From assembly GCA_963514005.1 (NCBI GenBank), contig OY740816.1:22754001-22818000 (forward strand): a DNA stretch of 64,000 nucleotides. Direction: 5' to 3'. The notes under the pieces are model-generated. The model saw only the letters and a list, made by a program, of their open reading frames with translations. It was not told the DNA's origin and did no database searches. This stretch comes from Raja brachyura. Lineage: Eukaryota. Shown here in pieces: positions 7,026-60,480 of this stretch. Every line of letters begins with the position of its first letter. Position 1 is the first letter of the stretch. Position numbers and translations under genes: made by a program.

Positions 7026-8533
7026 TATTTCCTTCGCTCCATAGATGCTGCCTCACCCGCTTAGTTTCTCCAGCATTTTTGTCTACCTTCAATTGTCCAG
7101 CATCTGCAGTTATTTCTTAAACAAAACATGAGATGTTTAGTTCCGATTTAGTTTAGTTTAATTTAATTTAACTAAAAGAGAAGAGCTTTTGTTGCGTGCT
7201 ATCCAGTCAGCGGAAAGACAATACATGATTACAATCGAGTCTCACATAGTGTACAGATACATGACAAAAGGGAATAATGTGAATAATGTTTAGTGCAAGA
7301 TAAAGTCCAGTAAAGGTCTTGGATGGAGCTGTTCATGCTGTGAAACCATGCTGTGAAAATGCTTTATACGGCGCATCTGTAGAAGTTGGCGATATATAGC
7401 AGGACAGGCAGAATGTGTGGAGAAGGAATCAGAGTGAGCTTTGGTACTAACAAAAGAACATCAATCTGTTTCTCCCTACCTGACCGCTGAGTGTTTCCAG
7501 CATTCTCTGTTTAATTCCAGATTTCCAGCATCAGCTGTTCTTGATGCTTTTAAGGAACACCATTCACTAATTCCCCATTTTGTAAATGACTGACATATCT
7601 CTAATCCTTGCACCAGGAGGAAACAATTGAAACCAACTCTTGCCTGATTCTTCCCACGTGGTGTCTCTGATGATCCTCGTGCCTCCAACATTAGGACCTC
7701 TCTCCTAACTGGATGGACAGGACACGTTTGGAGGGTTATAGGCAAAATGAAGGCAGGTGGGACGAGTGTAGCTGGGATATGTTGACCGGTCTGGGCAAGT
7801 TGGGCCGAAGGACCTGTTTCTACACTGTATCACTCTAAATCCTTCCTTTAGTGTGGTGACCAGAACTGTATCTAGTACACCAGCTGTGACACAGTTACGG
7901 AACTTAGGATGATGAGACATTACATGTTTAGTTAAAATGAAACGCCCTGCAGGCACTGTAGCCAGTTCAATGTGCTGTTGTCAGGGGCCGTGCGGTCTAC
8001 CCCTCCACCAGGGGGGCGGAGGACAGTGCAGTCGAAAATAGTAAGATTAAACGAGAACTTACCAGTTCGAAGGTTGATCTTTATTTTATGAGGAGTTGCG
8101 ATGAGGGATTTCGTGAAGACCCCGCCAACACGCATGCGCGGCATCCTTCAAAGCAGCGGTGTGGAATCACAGACTCGACGAAAAGTAAGGATATTAAGAT
8201 TAAACTGCGAACTAACCAGCTGAACATAATGATCGAGGGTTGGGAGCGGAGGGCACGAAATCCCTCATCGCAACTCCTCATAAAATAAAGATCAACCTTC
8301 GAACTGGTAAGTTCTCGTTTAATCTTACTATTTTACTTCGGAGTCACGTGAGTGACTTCGTGAAGACTTCAAAGCTCTGTGATTACACGCCCTGGACAAC
8401 GCCCATGCTACCACACTGCCGCAATCCTGATGGAGGAAGTTTGTTAAAGCAATCCAGACTGGACAATCTGAAAATAATTAACATTTATTAAACACAAATC
8501 ATAAACAAACCCCCTGACTGGGGACAAATGATA

Positions 8534-9529
8534 TTAGGGAGCAGCCCTGAGTACTGCATCCGCATATGTTGCAGGTCCGGCCAATGGCTTATGGTAGAAC
8601 CGTTGAAAGGTTGACTCACTGGCCCATCCTGCCGTAGCGAGGACGTGATCCATGGGCACCTCCATGGCCCTCGCTGTTGATGTGGATGCAGCCCTGGTGG
8701 AATGAGATTTAAACAAGTTAGTGTCAATACCCGCTGCATCCAACACTTCCCTGAGCCACCTGGAGATCGTCTGCACTGTCACCCGGCGATGTGGTTTTTT
8801 GTGGCTTATAAGCAGTCCTTGTTCCGAATTCCTGATCGACCGGGTCAACTCAATGTAGCAACGGAGATGGGTGACTGTGCAGAGTGTGGCATCAGAGGGG
8901 TACGCCTGGAATTCCAACTGCAGCCCCAAAGATCCGGGTCGATGCTGCTTCAGCAGGTCTGCAACGTAAAACGTTATTTTCCCAGGGGTAGAGAGCATAT
9001 TGTCAATGCGCAACTTTTGAAGCGCCTGTACCCGCTGAGCAGACGTGAGCGCCATCAACATGACCACCTTCAGGGTGAGCTGGTGAAGAGGTAACCCCGC
9101 CATGGGGGACCATGATCTTAACAGGGACAGGACCACTCCTGCATCCCAGACAACGTTATATCTGGGCCGTGGAGGGTTTGTGTTAAATACACCCCTCATA
9201 AACTTCGACACCAGATTGTTGGTCCCCACTCCTACCGGAAGGTACGAGGACAGCGCACTCCTGGCGCTATTGATGGTACTATAGCTGAGCCCTTCATCAT
9301 AGTGGAGGCCCGCCAGGAATTCCAGGACGTCAGGTATTGTGGCAGAATCATAGGTAACACTCTTCCTTAAACAGAATAGTTCCCATTTCCTGATCTGGGT
9401 CAGGTACTGCCGCCTTGTAGATGCTCTGCATGATGCAGCGATTAAATCCATGGCCCTCGGTGAGATCCCCGTGTTCAGCAAAGGCCTTTTCAGAACCTGC
9501 AGACCAACAGGTTTAAATAGGCGTGGCAC
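8534..9529 (-). CDS. DIRS ORF3 tyrosine recombinase
   Basis: Catalytic R (SAQRVQ), HSTR, W (AGW) and Y (FQRFY). Overlaps the 3' end of ORF2. Confidence 0.92.
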   Translation of the reverse strand: MPRLFKPVGLQVLKRPLLNTGISPRAMDLIAASCRASTRRQYLTQIRKWELFCLRKSVTYDSATIPDVLEFLAGLHYDEGLSYSTINSARSALSSYLPVGVGTNNLVSKFMRGVFNTNPPRPRYNVVWDAGVVLSLLRSWSPMAGLPLHQLTLKVVMLMALTSAQRVQALQKLRIDNMLSTPGKITFYVADLLKQHRPGSLGLQLEFQAYPSDATLCTVTHLRCYIELTRSIRNSEQGLLISHKKPHRRVTVQTISRWLREVLDAAGIDTNLFKSHSTRAASTSTARAMEVPMDHVLATAGWASESTFQRFYHKPLAGPATYADAVLRAAP

Positions 9530-11421
9530 GGATGCGGCTCGCCAGTGACGGGATTAGTAACCAATTGTGGGTTGTTTCCTATTCGCACCCACGGGCGCTT
9601 CAGCATCTGAGAGACCACCGGGTACCACGGTTGTGTCGGCCAGTCGGGTATTACCAGAATGCCTGATGCAGAGTCTAATTTAATCTTCTGTAATACCCGA
9701 CTGATGAGGCAGAATGGGGGAAAAGCGTAGCAACACCATTTCCCCCAGTGGAGCGAAAAAGCATCCAAAGCCACTGCCCCAGGATCTGGTTCCCACGATA
9801 CATATGTTGGTATCTGATGGTTCAGTCTAGACGCAAATAGGTCAATATCTGGCATACCAAATTTTGTCACAATTTCAGCAAACACAAGGGGATTCAGCAT
9901 CCACTCAATGTTATCATTAAAAACTCGTGACCTGGTGTCCGCCACCGTATTGAGTATCCCCGGAAGGTACGTTGCTGATATCCAAATACCCCTTTTGATG
10001 CACCAGAGCCAAATTGTATTTGCCAAATCATTACAAGATACTGACCTGATACCACCCATATGATTTATATAGGCTACCACCGTGGTGTTATCGATTTGAA
10101 GGCGGACATGTGCATGACGCAAATTACTGCAATATGCCCGCAGTCCATGAAAGACCCCCAGCATTTCCAAATAATTAATGCCTTGCACTTGGAGAAGCGT
10201 GAACTCATGAGCGTCCCATCTGCCACCACAGCTGGTTACAGTGTCAGTTGCCCCCCAGCCTTGTGCACTCGCATCAGTTTGCAACAGAACCGTGGGATTC
10301 GGGAGAATGATGGGTTTGGAACTTACTCCAATATTATGAACCCACCATTCCAGCTCAGTTTGCTCCCCTATGCCTAAGCGCATAGGTCTGTCAAAATGTC
10401 CGGTATTCAATTTTAACGCCAGAATTTTACTTTTTTGTAAGTTTTGGTAATGCAACAGACCATAGTTTACGGCCGGGAATGTGGCAACCAGCTTGCCAAT
10501 TACCTTAGCAACCTGCCGAATGGTTGGCCTGTTGTTGTCAAGTAAACTGATGCATGCTTGTTGAACGTCCACCACTTTGTCAACTGGGACCGTGATTTCC
10601 ATCTGGTTAGTGTCTATAGTGAACCCCAAATAGTCCATGACCTGCGAAGGGTTGAGCTTGGATTTGTCTGGATGGATTACAAACCCCATTCTTTGAAACA
10701 AAGATATAGCGGCCGAGACTGCCAACTGGGCGTGCTCTAGGGTTTTCCCTGCTATGAAAATGTCATCTAAATATGCCATTATAATATGGTTTTGTTTCCT
10801 GAGATGTGCCAATAAAGGTTTGACAATTTTAGTAAATAGTCTCGGCGCTGTTGTAATCCCATTAGGCAAAGCCATATATTGCCATAATTGACCTTCCCAG
10901 ACAAATTTCAAGAACCTTCGATGTTGTTTAGCAATAGGGACTGTATAGTACGCATCCTTCAGGTCAATGCAAGCCATAAAGTACCCATGACTAACCAACT
11001 GCTTGGCCGTCTCAAATGTCTCCATCTTAAAATGGGTATATTGTACGAAAGCATTCAACTGGGTTAAGTCGATGATAATCCGACAGCCTCCATCCTTCTT
11101 AACCCTAGTAAAGATGTTGGAAACAAACTCCAATGGCTCGTGCATCGTTTTTTGTATCACCCCTTTCTTTTCTAATCGTAGTATTTCAACATGAGCCCGC
11201 TCCTTCTCTGACTGAGAGAGTGCAAATCTGCGACTAGGCTCATGTTGCGAAGGGGGATCTCTGCCATTAATAAACTCTATCTCATAACCCTGAATGCTTT
11301 GTAAAATAAAAGGATCCGTAGTTAGGGTATCCCAAGCAGACCGGAAACCCCGAAGCCGTCCCCCCACCGGTGAGGTTACTAAAGCTACGTTGTGGACGGA
11401 CCCAAGCCCCCTTACCTCCAA
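9490..11421 (-). CDS. DIRS ORF2: reverse transcriptase - RNase H - N6-adenine methyltransferase-like domain
   Basis: RT motifs IDLKDAY, LPNG, YLDD, YLGF. RNase H motifs TDAS..GWG, INYLE, IDN, ADT-SR. MT motifs IDLFASRLN...DAFS..W...YAFPPF. No ATG at the ORF start (TTG). Confidence 0.92.
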   Translation of the reverse strand: MEVRGLGSVHNVALVTSPVGGRLRGFRSAWDTLTTDPFILQSIQGYEIEFINGRDPPSQHEPSRRFALSQSEKERAHVEILRLEKKGVIQKTMHEPLEFVSNIFTRVKKDGGCRIIIDLTQLNAFVQYTHFKMETFETAKQLVSHGYFMACIDLKDAYYTVPIAKQHRRFLKFVWEGQLWQYMALPNGITTAPRLFTKIVKPLLAHLRKQNHIIMAYLDDIFIAGKTLEHAQLAVSAAISLFQRMGFVIHPDKSKLNPSQVMDYLGFTIDTNQMEITVPVDKVVDVQQACISLLDNNRPTIRQVAKVIGKLVATFPAVNYGLLHYQNLQKSKILALKLNTGHFDRPMRLGIGEQTELEWWVHNIGVSSKPIILPNPTVLLQTDASAQGWGATDTVTSCGGRWDAHEFTLLQVQGINYLEMLGVFHGLRAYCSNLRHAHVRLQIDNTTVVAYINHMGGIRSVSCNDLANTIWLWCIKRGIWISATYLPGILNTVADTRSRVFNDNIEWMLNPLVFAEIVTKFGMPDIDLFASRLNHQIPTYVSWEPDPGAVALDAFSLHWGKWCCYAFPPFCLISRVLQKIKLDSASGILVIPDWPTQPWYPVVSQMLKRPWVRIGNNPQLVTNPVTGEPHPCHAYLNLLVCRF

Positions 11422-11423
11422 GG

Positions 11424-13211
11424 TTAGCGCCGGGGTCTAGACTGTGGTGTCTTCGCTCCTCGTGTGGCGCGGCCCTGTTGCCGCATCTTCCAAGCTGGCT
11501 TGGGCTGGCCTTGGAATAAAAAAGGCCTCTGCTGTTGGGCCCCCGCCGAGGAATATGTTTGGGAATATGTTCTGGGGCCTTGGTCCACCGATGTGTGGGG
11601 CCTGAACGAGGAACGTGGCTGCTGCCTGGTGTAACCGGGAGTTTTGGATGAATAAGACTGTCTCATCATCCCCACAGTCTTGGCTTCCTCGTCCAGTTCC
11701 TTTACGCGTTTAGGCAGGTCTTCCCCAAACAACTGCCTTGGTGGTGGTGGTGCGGTGGAGGTGCTGCATAATCCCGCAAATTTGGGATTCAAATTTGGCC
11801 GGATGGAGCTCTTCCTGAAACAGTTTATCTCAAACTGTGTGGTGCACAGAAGTGCTAGCGCATCCTGCTGCTCCTCGGACACATTCGTGGCATCCAGCGA
11901 CCGAGCAAAAGCCGTGATACCTGCTGTCAGCAGCTTTAAGATTTTCTGGAGCTTGCCCTCCTTGACCCTTGTGTTCGCCGACATGTTCCCCCATATTGCT
12001 GCATTCACTTTCGGTACGTTGAGGGAGTTACAGTTTGCTGGTGCCTTATACTTCCCCACTGTTTCCGAGAGCACGGTATCCTGGAGCTGGTGCGTAGTCA
12101 GGAAATCGATTGACGCCGCTATTTTGGGATGTAGTGGTCCTCCTGCCGCCGCAGGTGACCCAAATTTCGATACCGCCTCCAACATTTCCTGTGGGTTCTG
12201 GACCTCTTCTCCCTCCTCAGGCTCACCCATACTTCCTTGCTGGCTCTCAAGCGACGGGGAGATAGAAGGTGGCGGCTGCATGTAGCTCCCAGACCTCTGG
12301 GATTCCCGTTCCTGACGCTCCAGGTCCCGCTGATATAGCACCTCCACCATATGCTCCAACCGGCCGATACGACCGTCACCGCTGTACGCGGGCCACTGGT
12401 CGTCTTCCCCAGCCTCTCCAGAGGAACCGGGGCTTCCAGCAGTTGTCAACACCCCCACGGAATGTACTGCCGGGAAGTCGCCAGCTCCCACTCCAGCGGG
12501 GCTGTGCGACTCCCACACGGACACACCGCTGGTCCGCCGTCGTTTGGACAGCAGCGGCCCCTCTGTCTGATGGGAGGGAAGAGGGCTAGAGTCAGTACTT
12601 GCACCAGAAACTGGACTCTCTGATGTCCGTGCGGGCTTACCACCACAGCGTTCCACATATAAACGGGACTGTGGCGGCGCATGGTCTGCTTTACCCGCCT
12701 CAGCAGGGGCGCTGGACCGTACTTTGCTGCCACCGGCCCGCACTACGGCAGCCTGTTCCGGTGGTGTGCCGGTACATCCTGCCCCCACAGGGATCCTCGG
12801 CACGCCAGCATTGCCACTGGTCTGCTTCCTTGCAGGTTTCCCCAGTGGCTTGTCCCTGCCTGCCGTACCGACAAGGCTGGACTTTAGCGAGGCTTCCCCC
12901 CTGTTCTGCCCGCGAGGGACCTTTAAAGGGGGGGATGCACTCGCGGACACGCTTGCTCCAAGAGCCCCACGTGCCTTACCTCCAGCCCTGGTCTTGGGCA
13001 CTGGAGTTCTAGAGTCAGGGTCTCCCAGCCCCTGCTCCTGCGCGGACACCCTCTTCTTGGCCAGAGGGGTTGTGCCGGGTCTGGTCAGCTGCTCAGAGCT
13101 CCCCGACTGCCGCGACTTCTTCCTCGGTGGTGTCTCAGCTGCTCCCGATGTAGCGGGCAGCTCCGAGGACTTCACTCGCTGAACGCGACTCCCACTCCTT
13201 CCTCCTTCCAT
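11424..13211 (-). CDS. DIRS ORF1 Gag-like protein (~595 aa)
   Basis: ACCATGG start at 13211. Low-complexity N-terminus, then a conserved core (IAASIDFLT...P-N--L--PKVN--IW...R---RP-L-PKFAGLC...LFGEDL) shared with copy 2. Confidence 0.85.
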   Translation of the reverse strand: MEGGRSGSRVQRVKSSELPATSGAAETPPRKKSRQSGSSEQLTRPGTTPLAKKRVSAQEQGLGDPDSRTPVPKTRAGGKARGALGASVSASASPPLKVPRGQNRGEASLKSSLVGTAGRDKPLGKPARKQTSGNAGVPRIPVGAGCTGTPPEQAAVVRAGGSKVRSSAPAEAGKADHAPPQSRLYVERCGGKPARTSESPVSGASTDSSPLPSHQTEGPLLSKRRRTSGVSVWESHSPAGVGAGDFPAVHSVGVLTTAGSPGSSGEAGEDDQWPAYSGDGRIGRLEHMVEVLYQRDLERQERESQRSGSYMQPPPSISPSLESQQGSMGEPEEGEEVQNPQEMLEAVSKFGSPAAAGGPLHPKIAASIDFLTTHQLQDTVLSETVGKYKAPANCNSLNVPKVNAAIWGNMSANTRVKEGKLQKILKLLTAGITAFARSLDATNVSEEQQDALALLCTTQFEINCFRKSSIRPNLNPKFAGLCSTSTAPPPPRQLFGEDLPKRVKELDEEAKTVGMMRQSYSSKTPGYTRQQPRSSFRPHTSVDQGPRTYSQTYSSAGAQQQRPFLFQGQPKPAWKMRQQGRATRGAKTPQSRPRR

Positions 13212-14330
13212 GGTTCTGAAAAAAAAACACACAGACCACACAAAAAACGGTAAACCAGCTCAAGGTTAACTTACCTGCAGCTGCTTACCTTTTTGAAGGA
13301 GCCGGTTGAGGGAGCGCACTCCCCCCCCCAGCTGCCGTGAGCAAATGCGCGCGACGATATGCCGCGCATGCGTGTTGGCGGGGTCTTCACGAAGTTACTC
13401 ACGTGACTCCGAAGTAAAATGACGTGCTGCGCTGTTTGCTGGTCTGCTCCACACATGCAGGCTGCTGATGAACACAGCCCCAGGAGTATCCCAAGGCAGA
13501 GGGTTGGCAGGGGAAAGGTAGGTTCACTCAAGTACAAAGGAAGAAATGTACGTGTGGAGTCAGATGAAGTGGGTGAGGTTATTTAGGAGTACTTTGCATC
13601 AGCATTTCACCAAGCAGAATGATATGGATGATAGTGAGATTAGGGTGGGGAATCTTTATACAGACATGCAGCTTGTGAACATGCCACTGCCGCGCAGAGA
13701 GACTTCAAATCCATTAGCCAAAAGATATACTGTGTGGGTGATCAATGGTCGGCATGGACTTGATGAACCGAAGGGTCTATTTCCATGTTGCATCTCCAGT
13801 CATACAACATGGAAACAGGCTCTTTGTCCAACTAATGCATGACAACTAGGATGCCCCATCAAAGCTAGTCCTATTTGTTCATGTTTGTCACATATTCCAC
13901 TAAACTTTCCATATTCAGGTACTCATCCAGTATATTTATATTAAGAAAAATATGTTGGGTCTTTTGAGAAACATTAATGTGGATAAGTTCTTGGAGTCTG
14001 ATAGGATCTATCCGGTGATTCTGAAGGAAGCAAGTGAGGAGATTGCTGGGGTCATGACAGAGATGGACATAGTGTTGGAGTAACTCAGCGGGTCGGGCAC
14101 CATATCTGGAGAACATGGATAGGTGGCGTTTTCCATCAGGCTCCTTCTCGTGTCTCGACCCAAAGTGTCACCTAACCATGTTCTCCAGAGATGTTGCAAC
14201 ACCTGCTGAGTTACTCCAGCACTTTGTGTCATGTTGTACATTAACCAGCATCTGCAGTTCTTTGTCTCTGCGCCATGACAGAGATTCTTTGTTTCCTCTT
14301 TGGCCACAAAGTGCCAGAAGATTGGGGATT

Positions 14331-14786
14331 GTCACCTATCCATGTTCTCCACAGATGCTGCCTGAGCTACCGAATTACTCCAGCACTCTGTGAAACGTCA
14401 CCTATCCATGTTCTCCACAGATGCTGCCTGACCTAACGAGTTACTCAAGCACTCTGTGAAACGTCACCTATCCATGTTCTCCACAGATGCTGCCTGACCC
14501 GCTGAGTTACTCCAGCACTCTGTGAAACGTCACCTATCCATGTTCTCCACAGATGCTGCCTGACCTGCCGAGTTACTCCAGCACTCTGTGAAACGTCACC
14601 TATCCATGTTCTCCACAGATGCTGCCTGACCCGCCGAGTTACTCCAGCACTCTGTGAAACGTCACCTATCTATGTTCTCCACAGATGCTGCCCGACCCGC
14701 TGAGTTACTCCAGCACTCTGTGAAACGTCACCTATCCATGTTCTCCACAGATGCTGCCTGACCCGCTGAGTTACTCCAGCACTGTG
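14331..14786 (+). repeat. 66-bp tandem array (~7 units) derived from the Penelope pLTR
   Basis: Unit tgaaacgtcacctatccatgttctccacagatgctgcctgacccgctgagttactccagcactctg recurs at 14391, 14457, 14523, 14589, 14655 and 14721, with a partial unit at 14331. Confidence 0.92.
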
Positions 14787-15442
14787 TCTAAACTAAGAAT
14801 CCTTGAGCCATTTGCAATTACACTGGGAGATCGCCAGTGGCTTTGAACTTAACTGTAATCAGGATAATTTAGCAGTCTAAATTATCTTGAATTAAGAGAC
14901 TGATTTTCATCAAAATGCTTGAATGGACTCATTCTTCCCTCTTCACAAAAATCAAAGATGCAAGAATTGGGAGGAGCATTCCCAAATGGGATGTGCAGTG
15001 CAAAATATGAGGTCATCCACTTTAGAGCACAAAATGTAAAAGGAGGGTATTTTGGGTGTTCACAAGCACATACATGTCCATGTACACATCACCTTGCAGA
15101 CACGGCGAACAATTAGGAAGACAAATGATTTGTTGCCTTTAATTATGAGAGTATTTGTTTAAAAATAAAGCAGTTTTGCCTGCACATCTCCACTCCATAC
15201 CAAGCCATAGTCGCAGCTTATTCACACAGGTTCACATCGATCGTTGCAAGCCTTGTACACTGTAAACAGCTACACAGTGGATTCGGCAGAATCGCTGATC
15301 ACAACACATCCCCTCCGCCCCCAACAAGCTCAATGCATTGCATGTATATGAAGGAACTGTAGATGCTGGTTTAAACCAAATATAGACACAAAATGCTGGA
15401 GTAACTCAGCGGGAAAGGCAGCATCTCTGGAGAGAAGGAATG

Positions 15443-16399: not shown

Positions 16400-17470
16400 T
16401 AGGTGCTGCGGTCGAGGTTCTGCTGTTTCAGACAGTGCTTCGTGGGAGCGTGTAGGTTCAAGAACCTAGAGAGATTGTTGTGACTGGGCTCAGTTGGCAC
16501 GGGCGCGGCAGCACCGGATAAAATGGCCTCTCTTTTTACAAAGACCTATACAAGGCGTGGGCATCAAAGGCAGAGTGTGGCCCCGGTCCCAATGTTCTGA
16601 TTTGGGAATCAGTGTATTCCGCAATCCGGCAGGCACGTTGAACCTTATCAAGTGTAAGCTTCTCATCCCGAAGTAATTGATTTCTCACCTTATCATTCAG
16701 GATGCCATATACGAGTCTGCCGCGGATGAGCACGTCGCGGTCTTGGAAGCGGCATCTGGATGCAATGCTGTTGAGGGCACCAATGTATGATTCAACCGTT
16801 TCGCCCTTTTGTTGACTGCGGGGAAAAAACTTGTGGTGCTCCATGATAACGTTGGTGCAAAGTTGGCACAGGTTTCTGAACTTTCGGAGGACGCAGGCCG
16901 GGTCTCTGATGGACTCTGCTGGGGTCTCAACATGTGTTACCGGATCGGTATGTTCTGGGCCGTAGTAGAAATCCTGTGCCCGCAGGGCAGCCTCTGTGCC
17001 CGCCACATTGAGGAGAATTCACGCAACGGTGTGGGATGCAGATGCAGTGTGGGCTGCATCCTTTTCTAGAATGTAGTTAGCCATGTTCAGCCAGAACAGC
17101 ATTCCTTTCGCATATTGAAGGGTTATTTCTGCAGTGGGATGGCCCCCATAGACAATGTCATAGTACTTGCTGTGAAGAGACTTCGGAATGACCGCCTTGT
17201 GTCCTTTCATTGTCACGCCATCCTGAATGACCAGTTTGTCACGCACTGGGAAAAATGGTTAGACAGCTTGTGGCAGATGGTGCTGTTTGTCTGGCCAGCC
17301 GCGGCGGATGACAGTGGCCAGTGATTGTAGCGTTTTGTCCGCAGCTGTTTGTGAAACTAGGATGTCTAAAGTGGGAAGCAGGAGACCATCATAACCATGT
17401 ACCTCTCATGCTCATCAACAGACAGGTGTTTTTCGCAGGTTGGGCGAGGTGCCCGTGAGAGGGTTTCAGC
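16400..17470 (-). mobile_element. Gypsy LTR-retrotransposon fragments (Gag core and pre-integrase region)
   Basis: 16536-17006: RSQQKGETVESY...L...C.F...IR.RLV.GI...LL....LTL (Gag). 17019-17246: L.IQDG...G..AVIPKSL...GH...FWLNM (integrase Zn-binding region). No LTRs identified. Confidence 0.75.
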
Positions 17471-21905: not shown

Positions 21906-23354
21906 TAAAAGGTAAGGTTTAACGTAAAGTTCATCAGTTTTATTTCGAAGTCACGTGAGTGACCACGTTAAGATCCCGCCAGCCCGCATGCGCGTCAATT
22001 CATCTAGCGCATCGTGCGAGTCGGAGCAGTTGCGACTGCTCTGACTAGGTAAGTCAATTTTCACCGGGCTGCAGTAGAGCGTGCCCAGAGTAGCTATGGA
22101 GCGGGAAGTTCCATAGGGGCTAGAGTAAGTAGAATTTGCGCCGCAGTTTGAGCTCTCCACGGGAACAGGCGGCTGAAATTGTCGGGCTCCATAGGAACTG
22201 GGTTTGCAGCTGTTGCGTTATAGCTCAGACGGTCAAAATTGAAAGACCGGCCTAACGCTCCATAGGAGCTGGGATTATGGCAGTTGCTGATATAGTCTGC
22301 ACGACAGCAGACATCCGTAATGGGAGACTGCCGGCTAGGATAAGTTGTTACATCTGCCGGCATCAGAGCTCCATACGGGAGCAGGCAGCCAGAGTTGGAG
22401 GCAGCGTGGGGCTCCGTAAGGAGCTAGAATTCATAAACTGTGACTGCCGACAGCCAGGTCTATTATCGCTGCACTGGGTTTTCCAGTAGTAGGTGAGTTT
22501 TAAAAATAGCTGCGGCCAAGAGCTACCGCTTAGGTAAGCTCAGCCTGCCGTAGCACCGAACAATTTTAACGATTTACTGCTACAGCTATGCTGCAGCAGC
22601 AGATAGTGTATACTTTTTTTTGGGCGACTATAATAGAGTTGGCATTATTTACAGTTACCACTGGGTCACGTTTATAACTCTCTTAGCCGATAGCATTCTA
22701 AAGTCATGTTTAATTCTTTGGCAATATAACAAATATGTCTTTTCATGCCAATAAAGTTTATGTTCTAAAGACAAATACAAAAGACATTTATTATCACTGT
22801 ATTATCAATGGTGTAGTGGTATTGGACTTGCCATTGCAGTCCAGAGCTCCTGGCTTGGGAAGCCTTGTTGAGCTGTGCCTCTCAGACACCTGTGGGAGCT
22901 ACACCTAGTGGCGTCATGGTGTTTCCACTCATTAGAGGGGACTGTTGAAGATTCTTTTACAAGAGACTCCAACTATATGCATGTCAAATCTCTGATTTAA
23001 TTGGGATAGGCTTCTTTTAATCATATAAACATAATTGCCTATGACAACACCTGGCAGGGTTGCAGTATTTCTCCCACTCTGTCTGGCGTATGGGGGCCAG
23101 AGGCGCTCCAGTCCTTCACTGTAATACTCCGTTGGCTCCAGAAGGGATCAAGGTCACTAGCAGGTGCAATCTATTTGGTAAATGATGATAACAATAGAGC
23201 ACCGATCTATGGTTAGTCTCGGTTCGACTGCTAAAGGAAGCAGCCTGGCAACCCCAAGTTGGGGCAAAGTCATAGCCAAGTCCTGGGACATCCATGGCAG
23301 ATGTGATTGGCGTTTGTCTCAATTAGAACATCCGCTGAATCAAATTATAACACA

Positions 23355-23735
23355 AGGAATGCTTCATATTACGAAGGCATGTCAGGCAGCAGCTCCTGGT
23401 TCAGGATTGCAATTTTTCGTCCCACTCGGATGAAAGGAGTGGTGGAGATGGTACCAAAGTGATGCACATATGCCTGAAGCAGCTCCTGGTTCAGGGTTGC
23501 AATCTTCCTCCCACTCGGATGAACAAAGTGATGGAGATGGTGCCGAAGTATATGCACACATGCCTAAGGCAGCTCCTGGTTCAGGGTTGCATAAGCCCTC
23601 CCACTCGAATGAATGAAGTGATGGAGATGGTGCCAATTATTATGCTCCATATTATGGAAGCATGCACAGACAGTCCAAGGCATACGCATATGGCAATGCC
23701 TGGTTCAGGGTGCAACTTTTTCTCCCACTCCAAGA
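23355..23735 (+). repeat. 90-bp tandem repeat (~4 units) inside the DIRS copy-3 gag region
   Basis: gcagctcctggttcagg recurs at 23389, 23479 and 23569, with a diverged unit at ~23698. Confidence 0.85.
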
Positions 23736-25034
23736 GTGCCAGAGATCAGTATGGACTGACCCCAAACATGACCCCGAACATGACTATGTGCCGGGATCCC
23801 ATGCTTTAATGCATGATATGCGACAATCGCATAAGGAAGAACTGTGTGCACTTGCCTCTAAAATTGCTGTTCCCTCGTGGACGGACAAGCCACTACAAGA
23901 GGAATTGGCCAGCGGCATCAGCTATCTAACAAAATGACTAGCATGATAGATAGGGTATGCAATTGGAACTTCACTGAAGCTCCAAAAAAGAAAATAGACC
24001 CGGGGTTAGAGACGCTGGTAAGTAAGGTCTCGTTATTAACCTCCATAAACTCCGAAATGGAGCAGTCTGTTGGCCCAGGTTGGGTTTACGGCCAGCATGA
24101 GCTGTCTAGTCAGTTTCACTGTCTCTGGGATAGATCAGGTTGATGTAGAGACATTGGCAAGGTGCCTCGTTTTCCCACATCTAAGGGAGACTGTGGTTTC
24201 AGCTCTAGTCATTAACTGCTGATTATATGTTATCAGTGATATGTATGAATAACTAGATAATGCATTTTCCGCGGGTAGGAAAGCCAAAATAAATAAATAA
24301 ATAAATAAATTCTGTCCGTGATATCAATAAAGGAACAGCAGTTCCGAGTGCAATCAGTGACAACTCATCCGGGGATGAGTGCTCTGGCCAAGGACTAGAG
24401 GGGTATATTTCTGATACTTCTCTTCTTCTTTCGTGTGGCGGCACAGCCTAAAGTTGTTGGACCACGTGAAGGTTGCAATCTCCCACCCCTGATACTTCTC
24501 AAGATTACAGAAATATGATGCAGGCCAAATCGGGTTAGCATAAGGATAGTTGGATTATGGGTTTACTTACCCAGTTTAGATGGATGCAATTTAACTGACT
24601 CAGAGAATCAATCTTGTAGTTGCACACTCTGTCATATCTATACACATAAGACACAGAATCTGTTATTTTGATAAGAAAGTTAGTGGTGAAAGCCTATGCT
24701 GCCCCTTCTCAGATTAGAGGGCATTATGTCATCGAGTTTTAGGTAATATGCAAAAATTGCGGCTGATGAAACCTATGGGTTGTCGGTAGATATATTTTGC
24801 GATACTACATATGAGGCAACATGAAATTTAACAGTACCAATTTGCCTATTCTATCACGCCATGGTAGGCGACTGAAGCAACTCTTGCTGGGACAGCCTGT
24901 CTTCTCGGGCAGCTAGCTCTGCACGATTGTATGAGAAGCTTCTGAACAACAAATGTGACTCAATTTTAAAACGGAAGTAACAGGGGTGTGTATGGCTTCC
25001 AGTATGGCTAAAGAAGCTTTTATGTGATAGCACA

Positions 25035-25572
25035 ATTCAGATTCAGATTCAGATTCAATTTTAATTGTCATTGTCAGTGTACAGTACAGAGACAACGAAA
25101 TGCATTTAGCATCTCCCTGGAAGAGCGACACAGCAAATGATTTGAATAAATAATAATAAGTGTCCGGGGGGGGGGGGGGGGGTGATTGGCAGTCACCGAG
25201 GTACGTTGTTGAGTAGCGTGACAGCCGCCGGAAAGAAGCTGTTCCTGGACCTGCTGGTTCGGCAACGGAGAGACCTGTAGCGCCTCCCGGATGGTAGGAG
25301 GGTAAACAGTCCATGGTTGGGGTGAGAGAGGTCCTTGGCGATGCTGAGCGCCCTCCGCAGACAACGCTTGCTTTGGACAGACTCGATGGAGGGGAGCGAG
25401 GAACCGGTGATGCGTTGGGCAATTTTCACCACCCTCTGCAATGCCTTCCGGTCGGAGACAGAGCAGTTGCCATACCAAACTATGATGCAGTTGGTAAGGA
25501 GGCTCTCGATGGTGCAGCGGTAGAAGTTCACCAGGATCTGAGGAGACAGATGGACCTTCTTCAGTCTCCTCA
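25035..25572 (-). mobile_element. Rex1/Babar LINE 3' fragment nested in DIRS copy 3
   Basis: LRRLKK...FYRCTIES...LPSGRRYRS...FFP; (CTGAAT)n tail at ~25035-25058. Confidence 0.85.
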
Positions 25573-27047
25573 GTTGCAATTGACATTGCTTGTGCTGCTT
25601 TATCATTTCTGTAGTACATAAGTGGGACATAAATGATTGGTTCTTCACCAACTGTTCTCTAATGTTATGCAGGGTGTCTTTTATTTGACTAATAGCCTAC
25701 ATTCATTGTAATGTGCGATATACATCAGTAAATTGTTATGCAAATATTCCTCTAGTTTTCCTAATGGGACTAGTATCTTAAGATGATTATGCTTTCAGCA
25801 ACTGATCTCATCAGGGATGTCATTAGGTATACAAGTGCACTCAGTTGCTAGTGCCTATGACAAGGAAGATAGTTCTTTTCTTATTCAGTAGTCTCAAGAT
25901 ATTGCTGATGGCTCATTAGCAGCCAATAGAATGGATTTCCCTTTCATCATACAGCATGAGGTTTACATAGTGCAGGTTAATAAATTATAAAATTTGGTGG
26001 AATATGTCTGGATATTTGCAGATCATATTATGCGCAGTGTTACATGAGTTATTGTCTAACTCAACAGTCTATTGGGACTACGGTCCAGTTAAGACCAATG
26101 GCCATGTCTGCAAGTTAGCATCATGATATTAATAACTCATGTTTTTTCCTACCATTATGGTTTATCTCTTTAAGTGTTTCACACACAGATTGTGTCACTG
26201 CATGAAACCACAGATCTTCTAAATCTTCACGTAGTCATTCACGTGACTGCAAAATAAAATAAAAAGATTATAAATAAAATATAATAAAATAGAAAGAAAG
26301 TGAGGGATTACGTGCCCTCCACTCCCAACCCTATTCTCATAAAGATCATTCGGTGGTTCTAGACCTTTAATCTTCCTATAACTTAGGTCAGCAACTATGC
26401 TGTGGTTTCATACAGCTACTTTGAAGATTGACACGCATGCGGGCTGGCGGGCTCTTCACGTAATACCTCACTTCAACTTCTCATAAAATAAAGATCCAAC
26501 TTCAAACGGTAAGTTCTCGCATAATCTTTCTATTAATGTCAGTTCCCAGTTAAATCCCACTCCAATTGTCCAGGCATCTCTATGGGTTACCACATCTTAC
26601 ACGTGGAGGATCTGGAAGAAAGACTTTGGAAACCACATGATTTAATTTGTGGTAAAGTTTTATCAGGTAGCCCACAAAAACATTATATCACATGAAATAA
26701 TTTCTGGCCAGTATATTTTAGTTGGAAATTGTTCAAACATTTCTGGATGACAAGCCTAACGCCTACGTTGGTCATCATTCGTGTATGGTTTGGGAACAAA
26801 AAACCATTACTATGCATCTTTCAGCGAGAGTTCAAGTTCAAGTTCACATTTATTGCCACATGCACCAGTTAAGGTACAGTGGAATTTGATTTACCATGCA
26901 GCCACACAATCAAAATGAGCACAATACACAATAGAATATAACATGAACATCCACCACAGTGGAATCAACATTCTTCACTGTGGTGGAAGGCAATAACGTT
27001 CAGTCCGTCCTCCTTTGTTCCTTCAGTTATCCTTGTATTGTGACGTA

Positions 27048-54150: not shown

Positions 54151-55355
54151 TATGGTCTTTGCTATATAGCAGAGCTGTGAGACAAGCTTACTAACTGTTC
54201 TGTGTAGGAAGAAACTGCAGATGCTGGTTTACAGCGAAGATAGACACAAAATGCTGGAGTAACTCAGCAGGCCAGGCAGCATCTCTAGAGAGAAGTAATC
54301 GGTGACGTTTTGTATTGAGACCCTTCTTCAGACAGTTACATTCTATTCAGACAGCTAACTGCTCTATTCCCCCCATCCCCCACCCCATCACACCTCATCT
54401 CTCCCCACCCATTTATTACTCAGGGAGCAAATGATTAGAGGCAGATAAACAGATTTGATCAGCAATAACTGAGGGCATACTTGCCCCCTATTGTTTAATA
54501 AAACTTCCAAGAATCCAGAACACTTTCCACCATGTGAACAGCAAATTAACGTTGACCATGATTCATAGGATTTCCTTGGTAGTTAAGCACATATGTGAAA
54601 ATAACTGAAGATATGTTTAGAATAAGGTATACACACTTTGACTTTGGGCTCCGATTACTCATTTCCTTCAGTCAGGGCAATGGGAACAATCTGACAATCT
54701 GGAATAATGTCCATGTCGTGTTTTGTGGAAAAGCTGTAATCCATAAGGTCATAAAGTCATTCTGTCCCACACAAAAAAATTTGCCCACATCATAGACATT
54801 CCCTGACAATCTATTTATTTTCTCATTGTCTCTCTAGCAACAGAAATTAACTTAAGTCAAGTCAAGAGTCAAGTCAAAGGAGTTTATTGTCATGTGTCCC
54901 AGATAGGATAGATAGATGTACCAGATTTCAGGCTTCTGTAACTTCTACCTGATGGCAGGTAGGTACTGCTTCTTTTCATTTTCCTTCCCTCCCTCGGATT
55001 TGTCAGTGTTTTCCCCACATCCAACGATGTCAGAATATCGGGAAGAGCAAAGCGTTGGAAAAGGTGCAGAGGAGGTTTATAAGAATGATGCCTGGATTCG
55101 GGGGCATTATTCCAGACTCACAATGTGAGTCTGGAATAATGTCGTGTTTTGTGGAAAATCCTGTTTGGAACAGCTGTAATCGTCCCGTCCTACACAAATT
55201 ATTGGTGATTTAATAGAATAATTAATAGCTAATAATCCAAATTCTCTATCTTTATTGTCTGTAACCCTGTGCCCTGATCACGATGCTGCTCCACTCCACA
55301 TTCTCTCAGTTCACCACCTCTTTTCATTTTCCCCACATCATAGACATTCCCTGAC

Positions 55356-58300
55356 AATAGTAAGATTAAACGAGAACTTACCTGTTCGAAGTTTGATCTT
55401 TATTTTATGAGGAGTTACGATGAGGGATTATGTGAAGAAGCCCCGCCTGGCGCTTGACCGGCATACTTCAAAGCAGCGGCATGAAAATCACAGAACCAAT
55501 AGCCGAAGTAAGATAGTAAGGCTCAACATAGACTAGAACTACCAGATGATCATTTATATTATGAGGGCTGGGAGCGGAGGGCAAGTAATCCCTCATCGTA
55601 ACTCCTCATAAAATAAAGATCAAACTTCGAACAGGTAAGTTCTCGTTTAATCTTACTATTTTACTTCGGAGTCACGTGAGTGACTACGTGAAGATTTTAA
55701 AGCTCTGTGTTTTTTATGTCGTAGATTCATTCCATACAACACTCTGTTTAGTCAATACAGTAGTGAGTAAATAATATTTTTAAAAACATTGTTTCAATTT
55801 ATGTAATGTCTTTTAATCATAAAAAGAACATTTTTTTAATAATAACCCCTCTATCCCAGGGGAAAAAGTTTACAACAAAAGTGATAATGATATCAAATGA
55901 TAACATAAATCGATAATATAAATCGATAATATAAAACAAAGCAAGCATTTAAAGCGAACCCAACACTGCGTGTCCAAATCCTGGCACCGTGACAACTGGT
56001 TTATCGTAGAACTTTGGAAAAGTTTCTTCTTTACACCACCCTGCGGCCTCTAAAATTTGATCGAGTGGTACGTCCTGTACCTTTGCCGCGGACACAGCTG
56101 CAGCCCTAGTGGAGTGAAAATTAAACACATCAGTGTCCACTCCTGCTAAATCCAAAACCTGTTCTAACCATCTAGAAATGGTTTGAACTGCAACTTTTGT
56201 ATGTGGTTTTTTGTGCGTTATCAGTAACGCTGTCTCAGCACCTCGGAGATTTTTGGTTACTTCAATATATTTAGTTAAATGCTTAACTACACACAATGTT
56301 TCATCGACAGGATATGTTTTAAACATTACCTGGGTTCCAGTTTTTCCTGGTCTGCTTTGTTTGATCAGATCATAAACATAAAACACAATGTTACCTGAAG
56401 CCACATGCATGCAATCTAACCGTAACAATTGCAAAGTTTGTATTCTTTGAGCTGACACTAACGCCATTACATTACTACCTTGAATGTTAACCTTTGCAAA
56501 GACATTGAAGTAATTGGAGTCCATTGCCTAAGCAAAGTTAGAACAATGCTAACATCCCAAATTTGTGTATCACTGGGCTTGGGAGGATTTTTATTAAAAA
56601 TTCCTTTCATGAACCGGGATATTAATGGGTGAAACCCAATTGAATCTCGATCAGAAATTTGTCCTAAATAGGACGACAAAGCACTACGAGCACTATAACT
56701 TAAGTGCTCATCAAAATGCAACCCAACAAGGAACTCCAATACATTTGATATGTTCACAGTATGATAAGATATCTTTGACTGTCTACCGAAGACTTCCCAT
56801 TTCTTTATATGCGACATATATTGTTTTTTAGTGCTATTTCTCCAAGCTGCAGCTATAACATCCATGGTCTTATCCAACAGTCCAAGCTCTTGCAATGGTC
56901 TGGTCAGAACCTGCAGATTAACAAATTCATATGATCATGCAATGGATGAATTTCTTTTGTTACTGGTTGTATCAACAATCGTTGCAACTAGGAATCGTCA
57001 TACATGGTTCAATAATCATTTTAAGCATCAACGGGAACCATGACTGTGTAGGCCAATTTGGCCCCACCAAAATGCCCTTGGCAGCGTCTTGCACTATTTT
57101 CTTGAGACATTGCCCAATCAGACAGAATGGGGGAAAGGCACAAAAGAACATATTCCCCCAGTGTAGCGAGAAAGCATCCACCGCTACTGCCCCTGGATCG
57201 TGTTCCCAAGACACATATTTGGGCAATTGGTGATTTAATCTAGATGCAAACAGATCAATGTCCGGTACTCCAACCGACTGACAATATTTTTGAAAATTTG
57301 TGGATTTAACATCCATTCTGTACTGTCTTTAAATTTTCGTGATCTTTTGTCTGCCACTATATTGTCTCTCCCTGGGAGATAAATAGCTGAAAACCGAATA
57401 TTCTTACCAATACACCAATGCCACACCTGGTTAACCAGATGATCACATGATAATGATCTTACTCCACCCATGTGATTGATATATATGCCACAGCTGTGGT
57501 ATTGTTTACTTGTAATTGGACATGCAAATCCTTCATAGTAGAACAATAAACTTTTAATCCATAAAATGCTCCCAGTAACTCCAAATAATTTATACCATAT
57601 GTTTGGAGAAATATATCCTCTTGGACAGTCCATCTGCCCCCACAGCTGGAATCATTATCCGTAGCACCCCATCCGAGAGAACTTGCATCAGTTTGCAAAA
57701 TCACTGCTGGCTGCTGAACCAAAATGTTTTTAACAGCTTGTGGAACATTCTCAATCCACCAATGCAATTCTAATAAAGCTTCCTTTGGCAATTGCTTGGG
57801 CCTATCAAAATGGCCTGCTTGCTGCATAAGTGCTTGTGTTTTTGCCCTTTGGAGATTTTGGTAATGCAGTGGACCAAATTCTACTGCAGGGAATGCTGCT
57901 ACTAACTTAACAATAACCTTAGCAACTTCTCGGATGGAGGGATAAGGTTTGTCAATAAGGCACCGACATACATTTGTAATATCAACAATCTTGTCTATTG
58001 GTAAAGTTACTAACATGGTAACTGAATTAATCACAAACCCCAAATATTCAATAATTTGGGATAGCTGTAACTTAGATTTTGTTGGATGAATCAGGAAACC
58101 TACCCTTTCAAACAGGCTTGATTTTTCAGCTGATTCCTGATTAGCATTGACAATTAAAATGTCATCTAGATAAGCAATAACGATGTGTTTTTGTGCCCTT
58201 AGCAGTGCAAGTGCTGGTTTCAGCAATTAGTGAACAACCTAGGAGCTGAGCTTAATCCATTAGGTAATGCTTTGTATTACCACAGCTGTCCCATCCAATT

Positions 58301-60196
58301 AAATTTCAATACCTGCGAAAGTGACGATGAATTGGTACTGAATAATATGCATCCTTCAAATCTATTGTAGCCATGTCACAATCTGTTGATACCAGCTGCA
58401 TTGCAGTGTTGAAGGTGTCCATTTTAAAATGTTTATACTGGACAAATGTATTAAAATGTGTGAGGTCTAAAATGATTCTACAACCCCCATCTTTCTTTGG
58501 TCTGGGGAAAATATTTGATACAAATTGTTGTGGATCCTCACTTGATTTCTCGATAACTCCTTTTTTACACCAATTCTTAACTTCTTTATCAATTTGAATT
58601 TTTTCAAATACAGAAAACACCAAATACGATTAGGCTTATTCTGTCCCGGTGGATCAATACCTTCTACAAAATCAATGGTAGATCCTAAGACAGTACTTAA
58701 TATAACACGGTCAGATGTTATACAGTCCCATTTATCATAAAACATTTGTAGACTACCACCAATCATAGGTTCATCCAAAGATTCTTCTGTAATAGGATAA
58801 AGTTTTTGTACCTCTCCAACCGGACGTGGTGGTCTCCTTCTCCCAACATATGGGTAACATTCGGCTGTGCTGGTTGGTAATATTTCCTTACCATACTCCT
58901 GCCTCGGCTTGTTCCAGCTCCAAATCAAAATCCCCTTCTCATTTGACCGGCCCTTCTTTGGCCAAAATGAAGGGTTTCATGAGGTCAATAGTCTTTGCCT
59001 CTTTATCAATCTCTTTATTTATTTAAACAGATTTTCTCCGAACAAATAACCAGGAGCTTGAACATTGCTTGATCTGCACAAACCTGCAAATCTTGGATGT
59101 AAAATAGGCCGAATGGCAGTCTTCCTCATACAATTAATCTCAAATATTGAGTTGCAGAACAATGCCAACATATCCTTCTGAACTTTGGTCATTCCACAAT
59201 CTTCCACTTGCCTTCCAAAAGCAGTGATTCCAGCCGAAATCATATTTCCTGCACCCGCATCATTGATGACATTGGCGCCAAATAGCCGAATTTACCGTAG
59301 GTACCTTCAGTGAGGTATAATAATTCTGCTGTATCAACCATAACAGCTTCTTGAAGCTGGTGAGAGACCAAATAATTTATGTTGGCCGCCAGGTTTTCTT
59401 CCATGGCCTCACCGCCTCCTCCAGGTATAGAAACTTTGTGCCACATCAGACACACCTGGAGCAATATTTTTGTATTGTGGTGGGTACTCATGACCGAACT
59501 CACCACCTTCAGGATCAGTCTCACGCAGCCCTGGTACTCCTGAGACTTTGCTCAAGGACTTTCTCCAGCCCAATCCCGGGCTCTGGAGTTTCAAATTCCC
59601 AATTCAAACTGGCACCATATTCATGATATGGAACCCCCTCAGGGGCTGCCTGGGAATATTCTGGGTTTTTTAGACCCTTGGTTGATTTTTGTCTAGATCA
59701 TTTTCCATTTGATCCATTCTAAGCCATAAGGCTTTTCTATCTGGAGGACTTTCATTATCAGATTCATCAGAAACCACGGGCCTCTCAGATTTTCTTTTAC
59801 GTTTTTTAGGCACTGGATTTGCCTCCGTGGCTTCTGCTTGTGGAGCAACCAAAGGCTCACTAACGGGTATTTCAACGGCCACCGGTATCGGAACTGGCTC
59901 CGCAATAATCGGCTGTCCCGACTCTTCTCCTCCCCGGGACGCACGTTTTACCCGCGATTTTTTAGGAGCTTTCTCAATTTTTATTTTTAAACACTTCCTG
60001 GTCTTTTCCCACCAGCCCCACGGAGTTTGAAATGCCCTGGAAGTAAAAATAATTTACTTACCTGCGGGCCTGTTCCTTACCGCTGGTGGAGCTGCGCTCT
60101 GCTAGCTCTTCTCCTACCAACAGCGTCGACGTAATGCCGATCAAGCGCCAGGCGGGGTTTCTTCACGTAGACACTCACGTGACTCCGAAGTAAAAT
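55356..60196 (-). mobile_element. DIRS1-type retrotransposon, copy 2 (full-length, ORFs frameshifted)
   Basis: Same terminal/ICR sequence as copy 1, with a perfect 75-bp IR at 55356-55430/55586-55660. Broken Gag (~58960-59950), RT/RH/MT (~56905-58830: IDLKDAY, YLDD, TDAS, IDLFASRLN, AFPPF) and YR (55949-56910: SAQR, HSTR, FY). Confidence 0.93.
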
Positions 60197-60480
60197 CTAT
60201 TATTTTCTCATTGTCTCTCTAGTAACGGAAATTAATTTACTGCTTCTTTTCATTTTCCTTCCCTCCCTTCGATTTGTCAGACTGTTTCCCCGACATCCAA
60301 CGATGTCAGAATATCGGGAGGAGCAAAGCGTTGGAAAAGGTGTAGAGGAGGTTTATCGGAATGATGCCTGGATTCGGGGGCATTAGCTACAGGATGAGGT
60401 TGGGCAGGCTTGGATTGATTTCTCTGGAATACCGGGAGACCTGATATGAGTATGAGAAGAATAGAGGGGATAGACAATCA

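Follow-up and report, generated by a model that had tools for sequence, protein, structure and literature searches.

A full-length DIRS1-like retrotransposon of Raja brachyura with predicted frameshift and splice signals and a probable inactivating stop codon

Results

The locus and its element

The window analysed in this study, a stretch of 64,000 nucleotides from the genome of Raja brachyura (contig OY740816.1, positions 22,754,001 to 22,818,000), carries on its minus strand, from 13420 to approximately 8037, a DIRS1-like retrotransposon of 5.4 kb, here called copy 1, together with two further DIRS sequences, copies 2 and 3 (Table 1). Copy 1 encodes a gag-like protein in open reading frame (ORF) 1, a pol protein with reverse transcriptase (RT), RNase H and methyltransferase (MT) domains in ORF2 and a tyrosine recombinase (YR) in ORF3. 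Judged by its sequence, it is an ordinary, full-length and little diverged member of the DIRS1-like family, of the type with short inverted terminal repeats (ITRs) and short ORF overlaps. From sequence features and their conservation we infer frameshifting, splicing, a loss of autonomy and an inactive MT domain; it is likely that copy 1 belongs to a family which combines −1 frameshifting with a splice choice, and that a TAG codon in copy 1 would block both of its enzymes.

The two conserved ITRs are identical at all 35 positions, the 3' end agrees with the internal complementary region (ICR) at all 81 (8035-8115 against 8254-8334), and the 5' end at all but one of 38 (13383-13420 against 8330-8367, the difference lying between 8354 and 13396), exactly as the original prediction, made from the sequence alone, had described them. 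These repeats far exceed the chance repeats returned by the same comparison, which were imperfect and 14-26 nt long, and the two end matches overlap by five bases at the ICR junction. The terminus of copy 2 reads ATT followed by G, and the recombination core is therefore taken to be ATT; copy 1 thus probably ends at 8037, so that two of the 81 perfectly repeated bases would belong to the target and not to the element. ATT stands at the ends of both copies, in flanks that are otherwise unlike, and this agrees with the DIRS1-like pattern of an NTT trinucleotide at both ends and at the ICR junction without target-site duplication. Direct repeats of more than 11 exact bases were not found at the element ends, and membership of the PAT-like or Ngaro-like groups was rejected, their split direct repeats not being found there. 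The domains, the ITRs and ICR and the ATT end of copy 2 all agree with the DIRS assignment and the ATT junction that had been proposed.

No internal stop interrupts any of the three ORFs, again as predicted. Pfam recognises RVT_1 in ORF2 (E 1.5e-19) and Phage_integrase with a SAM-like N-domain in ORF3, and comparison with 120 homologs each upholds the catalytic motifs claimed for RT, RNase H and YR: YLDD is the majority sequence of the RT, and D388, E424, D449 and D500 of the RNase H and R174, K202, H284xxR287, W310 and Y320 of the YR are the majority residues. The RT and RNase H are of the Ty3/Gypsy-like type with intact catalytic residues, a tyrosine recombinase downstream of pol and on the same strand takes the place of the DDE integrase, and pol is closed by the MT domain, which is absent from Ngaro and VIPER. 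Amino-acid decay was considered as a hidden lesion; pol is off at 16 of 180 conserved columns (median 8.5, range 0-23, 106 rows), which was not decisive, and the YR departs from one of 53, the catalytic residues of both being untouched.

ORF1 has 1914 relatives at E<=0.001 and is homologous to the ORF1 of related DIRS loci. It has no Pfam match, and its structure model (predicted local distance difference test score, pLDDT, 89) had no Foldseek match at E<=0.001, the best VIA match (Z 6.7) being at the background level for helical bundles. One Atlas cluster, with LAP2alpha in 25% of its members, was recovered for ORF1 with a score of 0.90; LAP2alpha was not among the fold matches listed for the model. 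The third reading frame is also open for 126 codons across the gag/pol junction (11282-11662, minus strand), probably a chance product of GC-rich sequence.

Table 1. Features of copy 1, in 5' to 3' order, and the other DIRS copies in the window
Feature	Position	Strand	Remarks
5' terminus	13383..13420	-	ATT start; complementary to the ICR half for the 5' end
Left conserved ITR, 35 bp	13359..13393	-	reverse complement of 8110-8144
Predicted 5'-leader intron	13216..13288	-	tandem donors 13288 and 13274 (ranks 2 and 1 of 307); acceptor 4 nt before gag ATG (rank 1/361)
ORF1, gag-like	11424..13211	-	595 aa from ATG at 13211; 13259-11424 stop to stop, 611 codons
ORF1 features	~12188-11655	-	helical core at these positions; RG/Q-rich tail
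Slippery heptamer U UUU UUA (PFL motif)	11517..11523	-	gag frame, 97 nt before gag stop; predicted -1 site
TAG in pol frame	11437..11439	-	between heptamer and donor, 28 codons after the former and 7 before the latter; gag unaffected
Predicted pol-removing intron, 1919 nt	9497..11415	-	phase-0 donor 11415 (rank 4/307); phase-0 acceptor before 9496 (rank 9/361)
ORF2, pol (RT, RNase H, MT)	9490..11436	-	648 codons; first AUG is codon 98
MT domain, PCIF1/CAPAM-like fold	9493..9933	-	motif IV FPPF at 9723-9712
ORF3, tyrosine recombinase	8534..9553	-	339 codons; conserved part from 9496, first AUG 9451
ICR	8254..8367	-	5'-end part 38 nt, 3'-end part 81 nt; the two overlap at the junction
Right conserved ITR, 35 bp	8110..8144	-	pairs with 13359-13393
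3' terminus (divergent ITR and right extension)	8035..8115	-	ATT core 8039-8037
Copy 2, degraded DIRS of the copy 1 clade	55356..60196	-	37-62% amino-acid identity to copy 1 over matched segments; in-window control
Copy 3, remnant (termini and ICR)	21938..26534	+	blastn 75-84% to termini

A predicted frameshift site at the end of gag

Pol has 16 residues ahead of its first AUG that are conserved in 80% or more of homologs, and in eight of nine parsed related loci no AUG lies ahead of the pol start motif; the conserved stretch of the YR likewise starts upstream of the first YR AUG. A frameshift within the 13-nt stop-to-stop overlap of gag and pol was rejected, there being no heptamer in it, and the predicted site is the slippery heptamer that encodes the PFL motif further upstream in gag. 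Among 149 new Gag matches, of which 106 had a usable tail, F[LF], mostly in the form PFLG, is found in 94 of the 106 tails as against 20.3+/-3.7 in shuffled ones (maximum 32), usually 31-51 residues before the stop, and where the residue before it is not Pro (23 cases) none has codons unable to end in U (p 0.002). FF[RG] occurs in alternative-frame readings, open to pol or YR, in seven proteins, and six of the 149 Gag matches end in LF, from which it follows that the codons spell U UUU UUA/G. Three unannotated proteins that read as a single gag-pol ORF are without PFLG in the stretches examined. Other layouts were seen in P0092, P0107, P0117, P0244-P0247, P0250 and P0255, namely one-ORF gag-pol without PFLG or YR frames spanning the whole of pol, and P0255 appears to have a gag-like N-terminus as well.

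Fifteen DIRS loci (L001-L015), with 37-45% identity in pol, were drawn from a bacterial/archaeal genome collection; they are probably animal DNA mis-binned into bacterial metagenome-assembled genomes, and several are full length. Twelve of them hold the gag/pol junction, nine of which were parsed and three read by hand, and 11 of the 12 have, within an overlap that stays open as far as the RT, a heptamer in frame (U-rich, A AAA AAC, G GGU UUU or C CCA AAC); the exception is the frame-disrupted L015. The pol frame opens exactly at the heptamer in L001 and L007. Under synonymous resampling of seven loci such openness had a probability of 0.009-0.80 per locus, the product being ~5e-7 by hand arithmetic.

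Predicted splicing from the end of gag to the recombinase

Splice sites of copy 1 were ranked among its 307 GT and 361 AG sites using splice-site frequency tables, and a phase-0 pair that would remove pol ranks high among them (Table 1). The top donor near the gag stop is in phase 0 in all nine parsed loci (p 5e-5), and a phase-0 donor after the gag stop is also present in the three loci read by hand (12/12 overall). On the acceptor side, an AG behind a pyrimidine tract, arising from the Ser after MT motif IV, occurs in 11 of the 13 loci that include a YR start. Ten of these have it in phase, with an open frame into the YR, and the frameshifted L013 has it out of phase, while L010 lacks it and L014 was unparsed. 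In copies 1 and 2 this AG is missing, and an acceptor lies at the pol C-terminus instead (ranks 9/361 and 6/316). The same exchange is visible in proteins, where pol sequences without the Ser carry a C-terminal CR (52 with and 8 without) more often than those that have it (11 and 33; Fisher p 1.8e-10, 104 distinct pol rows). In addition, in P0241 and P0242 (both Diadema antillarum) and P0153 (Amphiura filiformis) the sequence from the FF site onward is an open linker that passes into the YR at the predicted residue.

An acceptor directly before the RT start was rejected (rank 179/361). No clear Gag-YR fusion, whether unspliced or from gene callers on transcript-like contigs, was found among 21 longer YR proteins, several of which are long-overlap YR frames spanning pol. 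The arrangement of the leader intron predicted ahead of the gag ATG is also found in copy 2, where it measures 25-44 nt only, and it is weak in distant loci, with acceptor ranks of 5-17 in five of them.

A stop codon in the linker

Between the heptamer and the donor, the pol frame of copy 1 contains a TAG (Table 1). The equivalent stretch is open in 11 of the 12 related loci and also in P0241, P0242 and P0153. No usable donor lies ahead of the TAG in the linker of copy 1, and the sole acceptor after it scores poorly. Owing to the position of the TAG between heptamer and donor, both enzymes should be lost; by comparison with these sequences the TAG is probably an inactivating lesion, and copy 1 is probably non-autonomous and movable only in trans. 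The original prediction of an intact and possibly transposition-competent copy is therefore probably wrong, for relative to its family copy 1 would carry a hidden inactivating change, provided that the expression model inferred here holds. Within the 64-kb window there is no near-identical copy of copy 1.

The methyltransferase domain

The MT domain has a class I methyltransferase fold (AlphaFold model, pLDDT 93), and its best match was human CAPAM in Foldseek (E 6.7e-5) and zebrafish CAPAM in VIA (Z 11.0, root-mean-square deviation 2.9, 143 residues aligned); Pfam gave weak matches to PCIF1_WW (E 0.033) and Dam (E 0.0088). When the MT alignment was searched against PDB sequences, all of the 60 matches listed were reverse transcriptases, because the alignment rows were full-length. 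Both motifs of the original prediction, IDLFAS and FPPF, are present, and FPPF is normal for the family, the first residue of motif IV being F in 115 of 120 homologs (four gaps, one L) and N, D or S in none. The polar residue (N/D/S) that opens xPP[FYW] is, however, absent from copy 1, so that the motif, though present, is not catalytically intact.

The catalytic motif of PCIF1 is NPPF, double mutants of which were inactive, only double mutants being reported as tested in the part of that work available to us (10.1101/485862). The equivalence of FPPF and NPPF used here comes from the fold match and the motif and not from a residue-level superposition. Since FPPF stands where PCIF1 has its catalytic NPPF, the MT domain is probably a pseudo-enzyme. 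It differs from PCIF1/CAPAM, its best match in both fold searches, in this motif, in consisting of a core of ~147 aa only and in an identity of 18-24%. Iyer 2016 (PMC4738411) already derives the DIRS1 MT from PCIF1 and regards all copies as likely inactive. In L001-L008 and L011-L013 the codons of the degenerate MT motif IV supply the pyrimidine tract for the predicted YR acceptor, and loss of the catalytic Asn may be linked to this second role of the motif.

Relatives of copy 1

The nearest named relatives of the YR are two Leucoraja erinacea proteins (P0132, P0137). In a quick YR tree of 71 rows, from which the short row P0131 was dropped, copy 1 and both Leucoraja proteins group together with a Shimodaira-Hasegawa-like approximate likelihood ratio test support of 100, within a wider group that also takes in echinoderm sequences (90-93). 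Among the named YR matches there was no bony-vertebrate DIRS. The YRs of the echinoderm models (Diadema P0241/P0242, Holothuria P0243, Amphiura P0153, Strongylocentrotus P0162) and of the Leucoraja proteins are 43-55% identical to that of copy 1, and these models are annotated as uncharacterized or hypothetical and not as DIRS.

In its anatomy copy 1 resembles DIRS1-like elements of molluscs (LgDIRS1 and LgDIRS3 of Lottia, AcaDIRS1 and AcaDIRS2 of Aplysia) as presented in the accessible portion of Piednoel 2011 (PMC3266345). They share ATT at both ends, the absence of long overlaps between ORFs, and the order gag, RT-RH-MT, YR, and they have conserved ITRs of 31-36 bp (copy 1, 35), a right extension of 48-49 (copy 1, ~46-48 by hand count) and an ICR of 39-45 + 86-88 (copy 1, 38 + 79-81). 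The host of copy 1 is in contrast a vertebrate, and the comparison was one of anatomy and not of sequence; frameshift or splice signals are not described for the mollusc elements in that portion of the paper. Bony-vertebrate DIRS1-like elements (the DrDIRS1 group, XtDIRS, AcDIRS) also have three ORFs, an MT domain, ITRs with an ICR, and NTT ends, but they differ, according to the same text (PMC3266345), in conserved ITRs of 102-148 bp, an ICR of 36-46 + 56-65, a mostly long ORF overlap and GTT/TTT/CTT starts, and in Xenopus in a LAP2alpha domain in ORF1 (PMC9210276, likewise in part). The terminal anatomy of copy 1 is of the mollusc type, unlike that of teleosts or frogs.

Age and surroundings

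Copy 1 had been called young. Its ratio of observed to expected CpG is 0.69 as against 0.41-0.44 outside, and on this ground and that of its unbroken ORFs its divergence is low, so that this part of the description stands. Scaling from the lesions of copy 2, by hand arithmetic with wide error, suggests a divergence of a few tenths of a percent, and the mutation rate given for the epaulette shark (7e-10 per generation; PMC10587355) suggests an age in the order of millions of generations. The perfect ICR hairpin is no sign of youth, because copy 2, which is of full length but frameshifted and whose pol and YR have seven frame changes and one stop, has a perfect one too (0/75 differences, against 4/73 in the long-range comparison; Fisher p 0.057), and hairpin identity was rejected as an age clock. 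The long-range differences of copy 1 (1/62, 95% interval 0.04-8.7%) are a weak guide. Hairpins may have been homogenised after insertion, or dead copies may have moved in trans with fresh ends.

By tblastn no DIRS coding match was found inside copy 3. Three DIRS in 64 kb suggest an abundant family or a cluster. Near-direct repeats of ~110 bp, seen by eye at ~60270-60380 and 55000-55110, flank copy 2, whose surroundings may be a duplicated or tandemly repeated element. The insertion site of copy 1 (7985-8034 and 13421-13520) is GC-rich and CpG-rich, with splice-like plus-strand signals on either side and, near 8006-8019, an imperfect CTCF-like motif; copy 1 may have landed in an exon or a regulatory site.

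The window is otherwise rich in LINE-type and other repeat fragments. One is a nearly complete CR1-type LINE (33260-37102, plus strand), which has esterase (GDSL-like), endonuclease and RT and is interrupted at a few points. An RT-like frame at 60474-61771 (plus strand), with a weak GIY-YIG match (E 0.16) after it, is probably a Penelope-like element. A fragment at 16536-17018 (minus strand), without a Pfam match, resembles a Gypsy-type gag region. A tandem array at 14331-14787 (66-bp unit, 6.9 copies, 95% matches) is built from a unit that recurs many times in the window and looks SINE-derived, and a run of 251 N within a CA-rich simple repeat (46260-47400) marks an assembly gap.

Discussion

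The features described above would fit together as follows. A single transcript would encode Gag, and a minority of ribosomes would slip by −1 at the heptamer, which lies ~30-55 codons short of the gag stop, and would continue in the pol frame. Unspliced RNA would then yield Gag-RT-RNaseH-MT, and splicing from the phase-0 donor after the gag stop to the phase-0 acceptor before the YR would yield Gag-YR. The RT would copy unspliced RNA with the ICR as template for both ends, and the YR, following the standard model, would recombine the ATT junction into a genomic ATT without target duplication, the MT, as a PCIF1-derived fold without the catalytic Asn, probably serving as a binding module. Copy 1 would have kept all of these signals and, with the TAG in its linker, would make Gag and neither enzyme, its mobility being possible only in trans.

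Retroviruses similarly use −1 frameshifting for Gag-Pol and splicing for a downstream gene, and U UUU UUA is the heptamer of HIV-1. In both cases one transcript serves several products; the differences are that the donor of copy 1 lies downstream of the frameshift site, so that the spliced product is also a Gag fusion, and that copy 1 is without protease, integrase and envelope.

On balance we also think it probable that many animal DIRS1-like elements share this combined scheme, in which ribosomes slip by −1 close to the gag end and a splice choice directly after the gag stop then decides whether RT-RNaseH-MT or the recombinase becomes the fusion partner. The acceptor would lie in the dead MT motif in many elements of marine-invertebrate type, or would have moved to the pol C-terminus, as in the echinoderm and skate group, and from this shift the short as opposed to longer pol/YR overlaps would follow. 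The skate lineage would be of echinoderm type and separate from bony-vertebrate DIRS, through ancient retention or old horizontal transfer, and copies with intact ORFs could be dead through linker stops. Frameshift-plus-splice expression of DIRS was not found in the literature searched, as far as the accessible text goes (including PMC3783388, PMC6681497, PMC5633606, PMC2685390, PMC9341512 and PMC13003380), though Poulter reviews or Repbase reports may hold it.

Several points weigh against this interpretation. Heptamers in the last 85 codons are individually common (0.12-0.51 by codon shuffle), the gag of copy 1 holds five other in-frame ones, and those ending in G, as in four loci, belong to a weaker class. 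A stimulatory structure was not found after the heptamer of copy 1 (z -0.19), z falls below -1.9 at only four of ten heptamer sites, and copy 2 is too broken to show a heptamer. Seven of the 15 loci come from two related bins, and the homologs are phylogenetically non-independent. Regarding splicing, P0241, P0242 and P0153 are NCBI predicted models, two of the three near-identical and from one species, the scoring depends on the frequency tables used, and a first-pass acceptor test was weak (5/8 in phase 0, p 0.09). The motif [EQK]V[SRG], present in 14 of 30 against 2.2, was chosen after viewing the data and also arises from Gag ending in Lys and a stop (36/106). Lastly, the loci compared are not of the closest subfamily, and the TAG may be a subfamily trait.

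Were that so, copy 1 could be autonomous, with pol and YR made by re-initiation at a UUG (11421-11419) that lies 2 nt past the gag stop and upstream of the donor. This seems to us unlikely, although the UUG stands in a strong context (ACC-UUG-G), the called start of P0003 (59% identity) aligns with it, and the three stop-free ORFs and the raised CpG ratio of copy 1 would agree with it, as would its PFLF in place of PFLG and its lack of a downstream stem-loop, as though the frameshift signal were relaxed. The start of P0003 is, however, a gene-caller choice, copy 2 has neither AUG nor UUG at that position and an open pol frame there, the terminal LF reading of P0264, the nearest Gag homolog (64%), implies the heptamer and then G, and the heptamer of copy 1 is itself perfect. 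Still less probable is an assembly or sequencing error, or a TAG confined to one allele, in an element that is intact under the frameshift-and-splice model; we give this very little weight. The TAG is a single-base matter and the lesions of copy 2 are mostly indels, possibly from assembly error, yet copy 1 is without an indel across 4.8 kb of ORF, and stops of this kind arise readily through silent changes in gag, only 37% of synonymous resamplings keeping the frame open.

Two further readings, both of which we regard as improbable, concern the signals themselves. The U-rich PFL tract might be a 3' splice site through which a leader exon is joined to the pol frame, in which case, too, both enzymes would be blocked by the TAG: an acceptor at 11509 ranks 2/361 and is, by hand reading, in phase with a leader ATG near 13369 via the 13274 donor, and the codon after FL starts with G even when it is not Gly (7/15, p 0.001). 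An AG after the U tract is nevertheless absent in L001, L002, L007 and L011, A AAA AAC in L003, L004 and L005 is slippery and no acceptor, and the leader ATG is absent from copy 2. Alternatively, the YR might be made without splicing, either from its own AUG (9451), a codon in strong context that lines up with the start called for P0121, or by frameshifting out of pol within the 64-nt overlap, pol having an in-frame heptamer at 9517; a review quoted in PMC13003380 proposes a frameshift into the YR for Ngaro elements. Against this, residues upstream of the AUG are conserved (Gly in 43/56) and Met is not the family residue there, and the conservation of the acceptor, its exchange between motif IV and the pol C-terminus and the three gene-model junctions favour splicing over both routes.

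Among known systems, Dictyostelium DIRS-1 shares with the scheme proposed here the ICR-templated restoration of both ends and an RT that acts in trans, its ICR having been shown to be essential (Malicki 2020, PMC7192593). It differs in a 304-bp conserved ITR and a long overlap (PMC3266345) and in being experimentally active with cDNA that is mostly linear and single-stranded (PMC7192593). A retrotransposition assay exists for it, and no product was obtained when the circle junction was sought by inverse PCR (PMC7192593), which together with the mostly linear cDNA weakens the inverse-PCR search for circles that had been suggested for copy 1. With this assay, and with putatively functional vertebrate copies already reported from Xenopus tropicalis (PMC9210276), a cartilaginous fish is not more tractable than these; copy 1 had been expected to provide a tractable vertebrate system.

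In conclusion, the value of copy 1 lies in the expression model that it exposes, since the papers searched give no explanation of how the overlapping pol and YR frames of DIRS elements are translated. For the MT domain, the question shifts from catalysis to cap or RNA binding by a PCIF1-like pseudo-enzyme. If the model is true, the exact protein products for reconstituting YR integration would be known, counts of active DIRS elements would change, three open ORFs being insufficient, and mis-annotated host genes would be explained as spliced DIRS transcripts.

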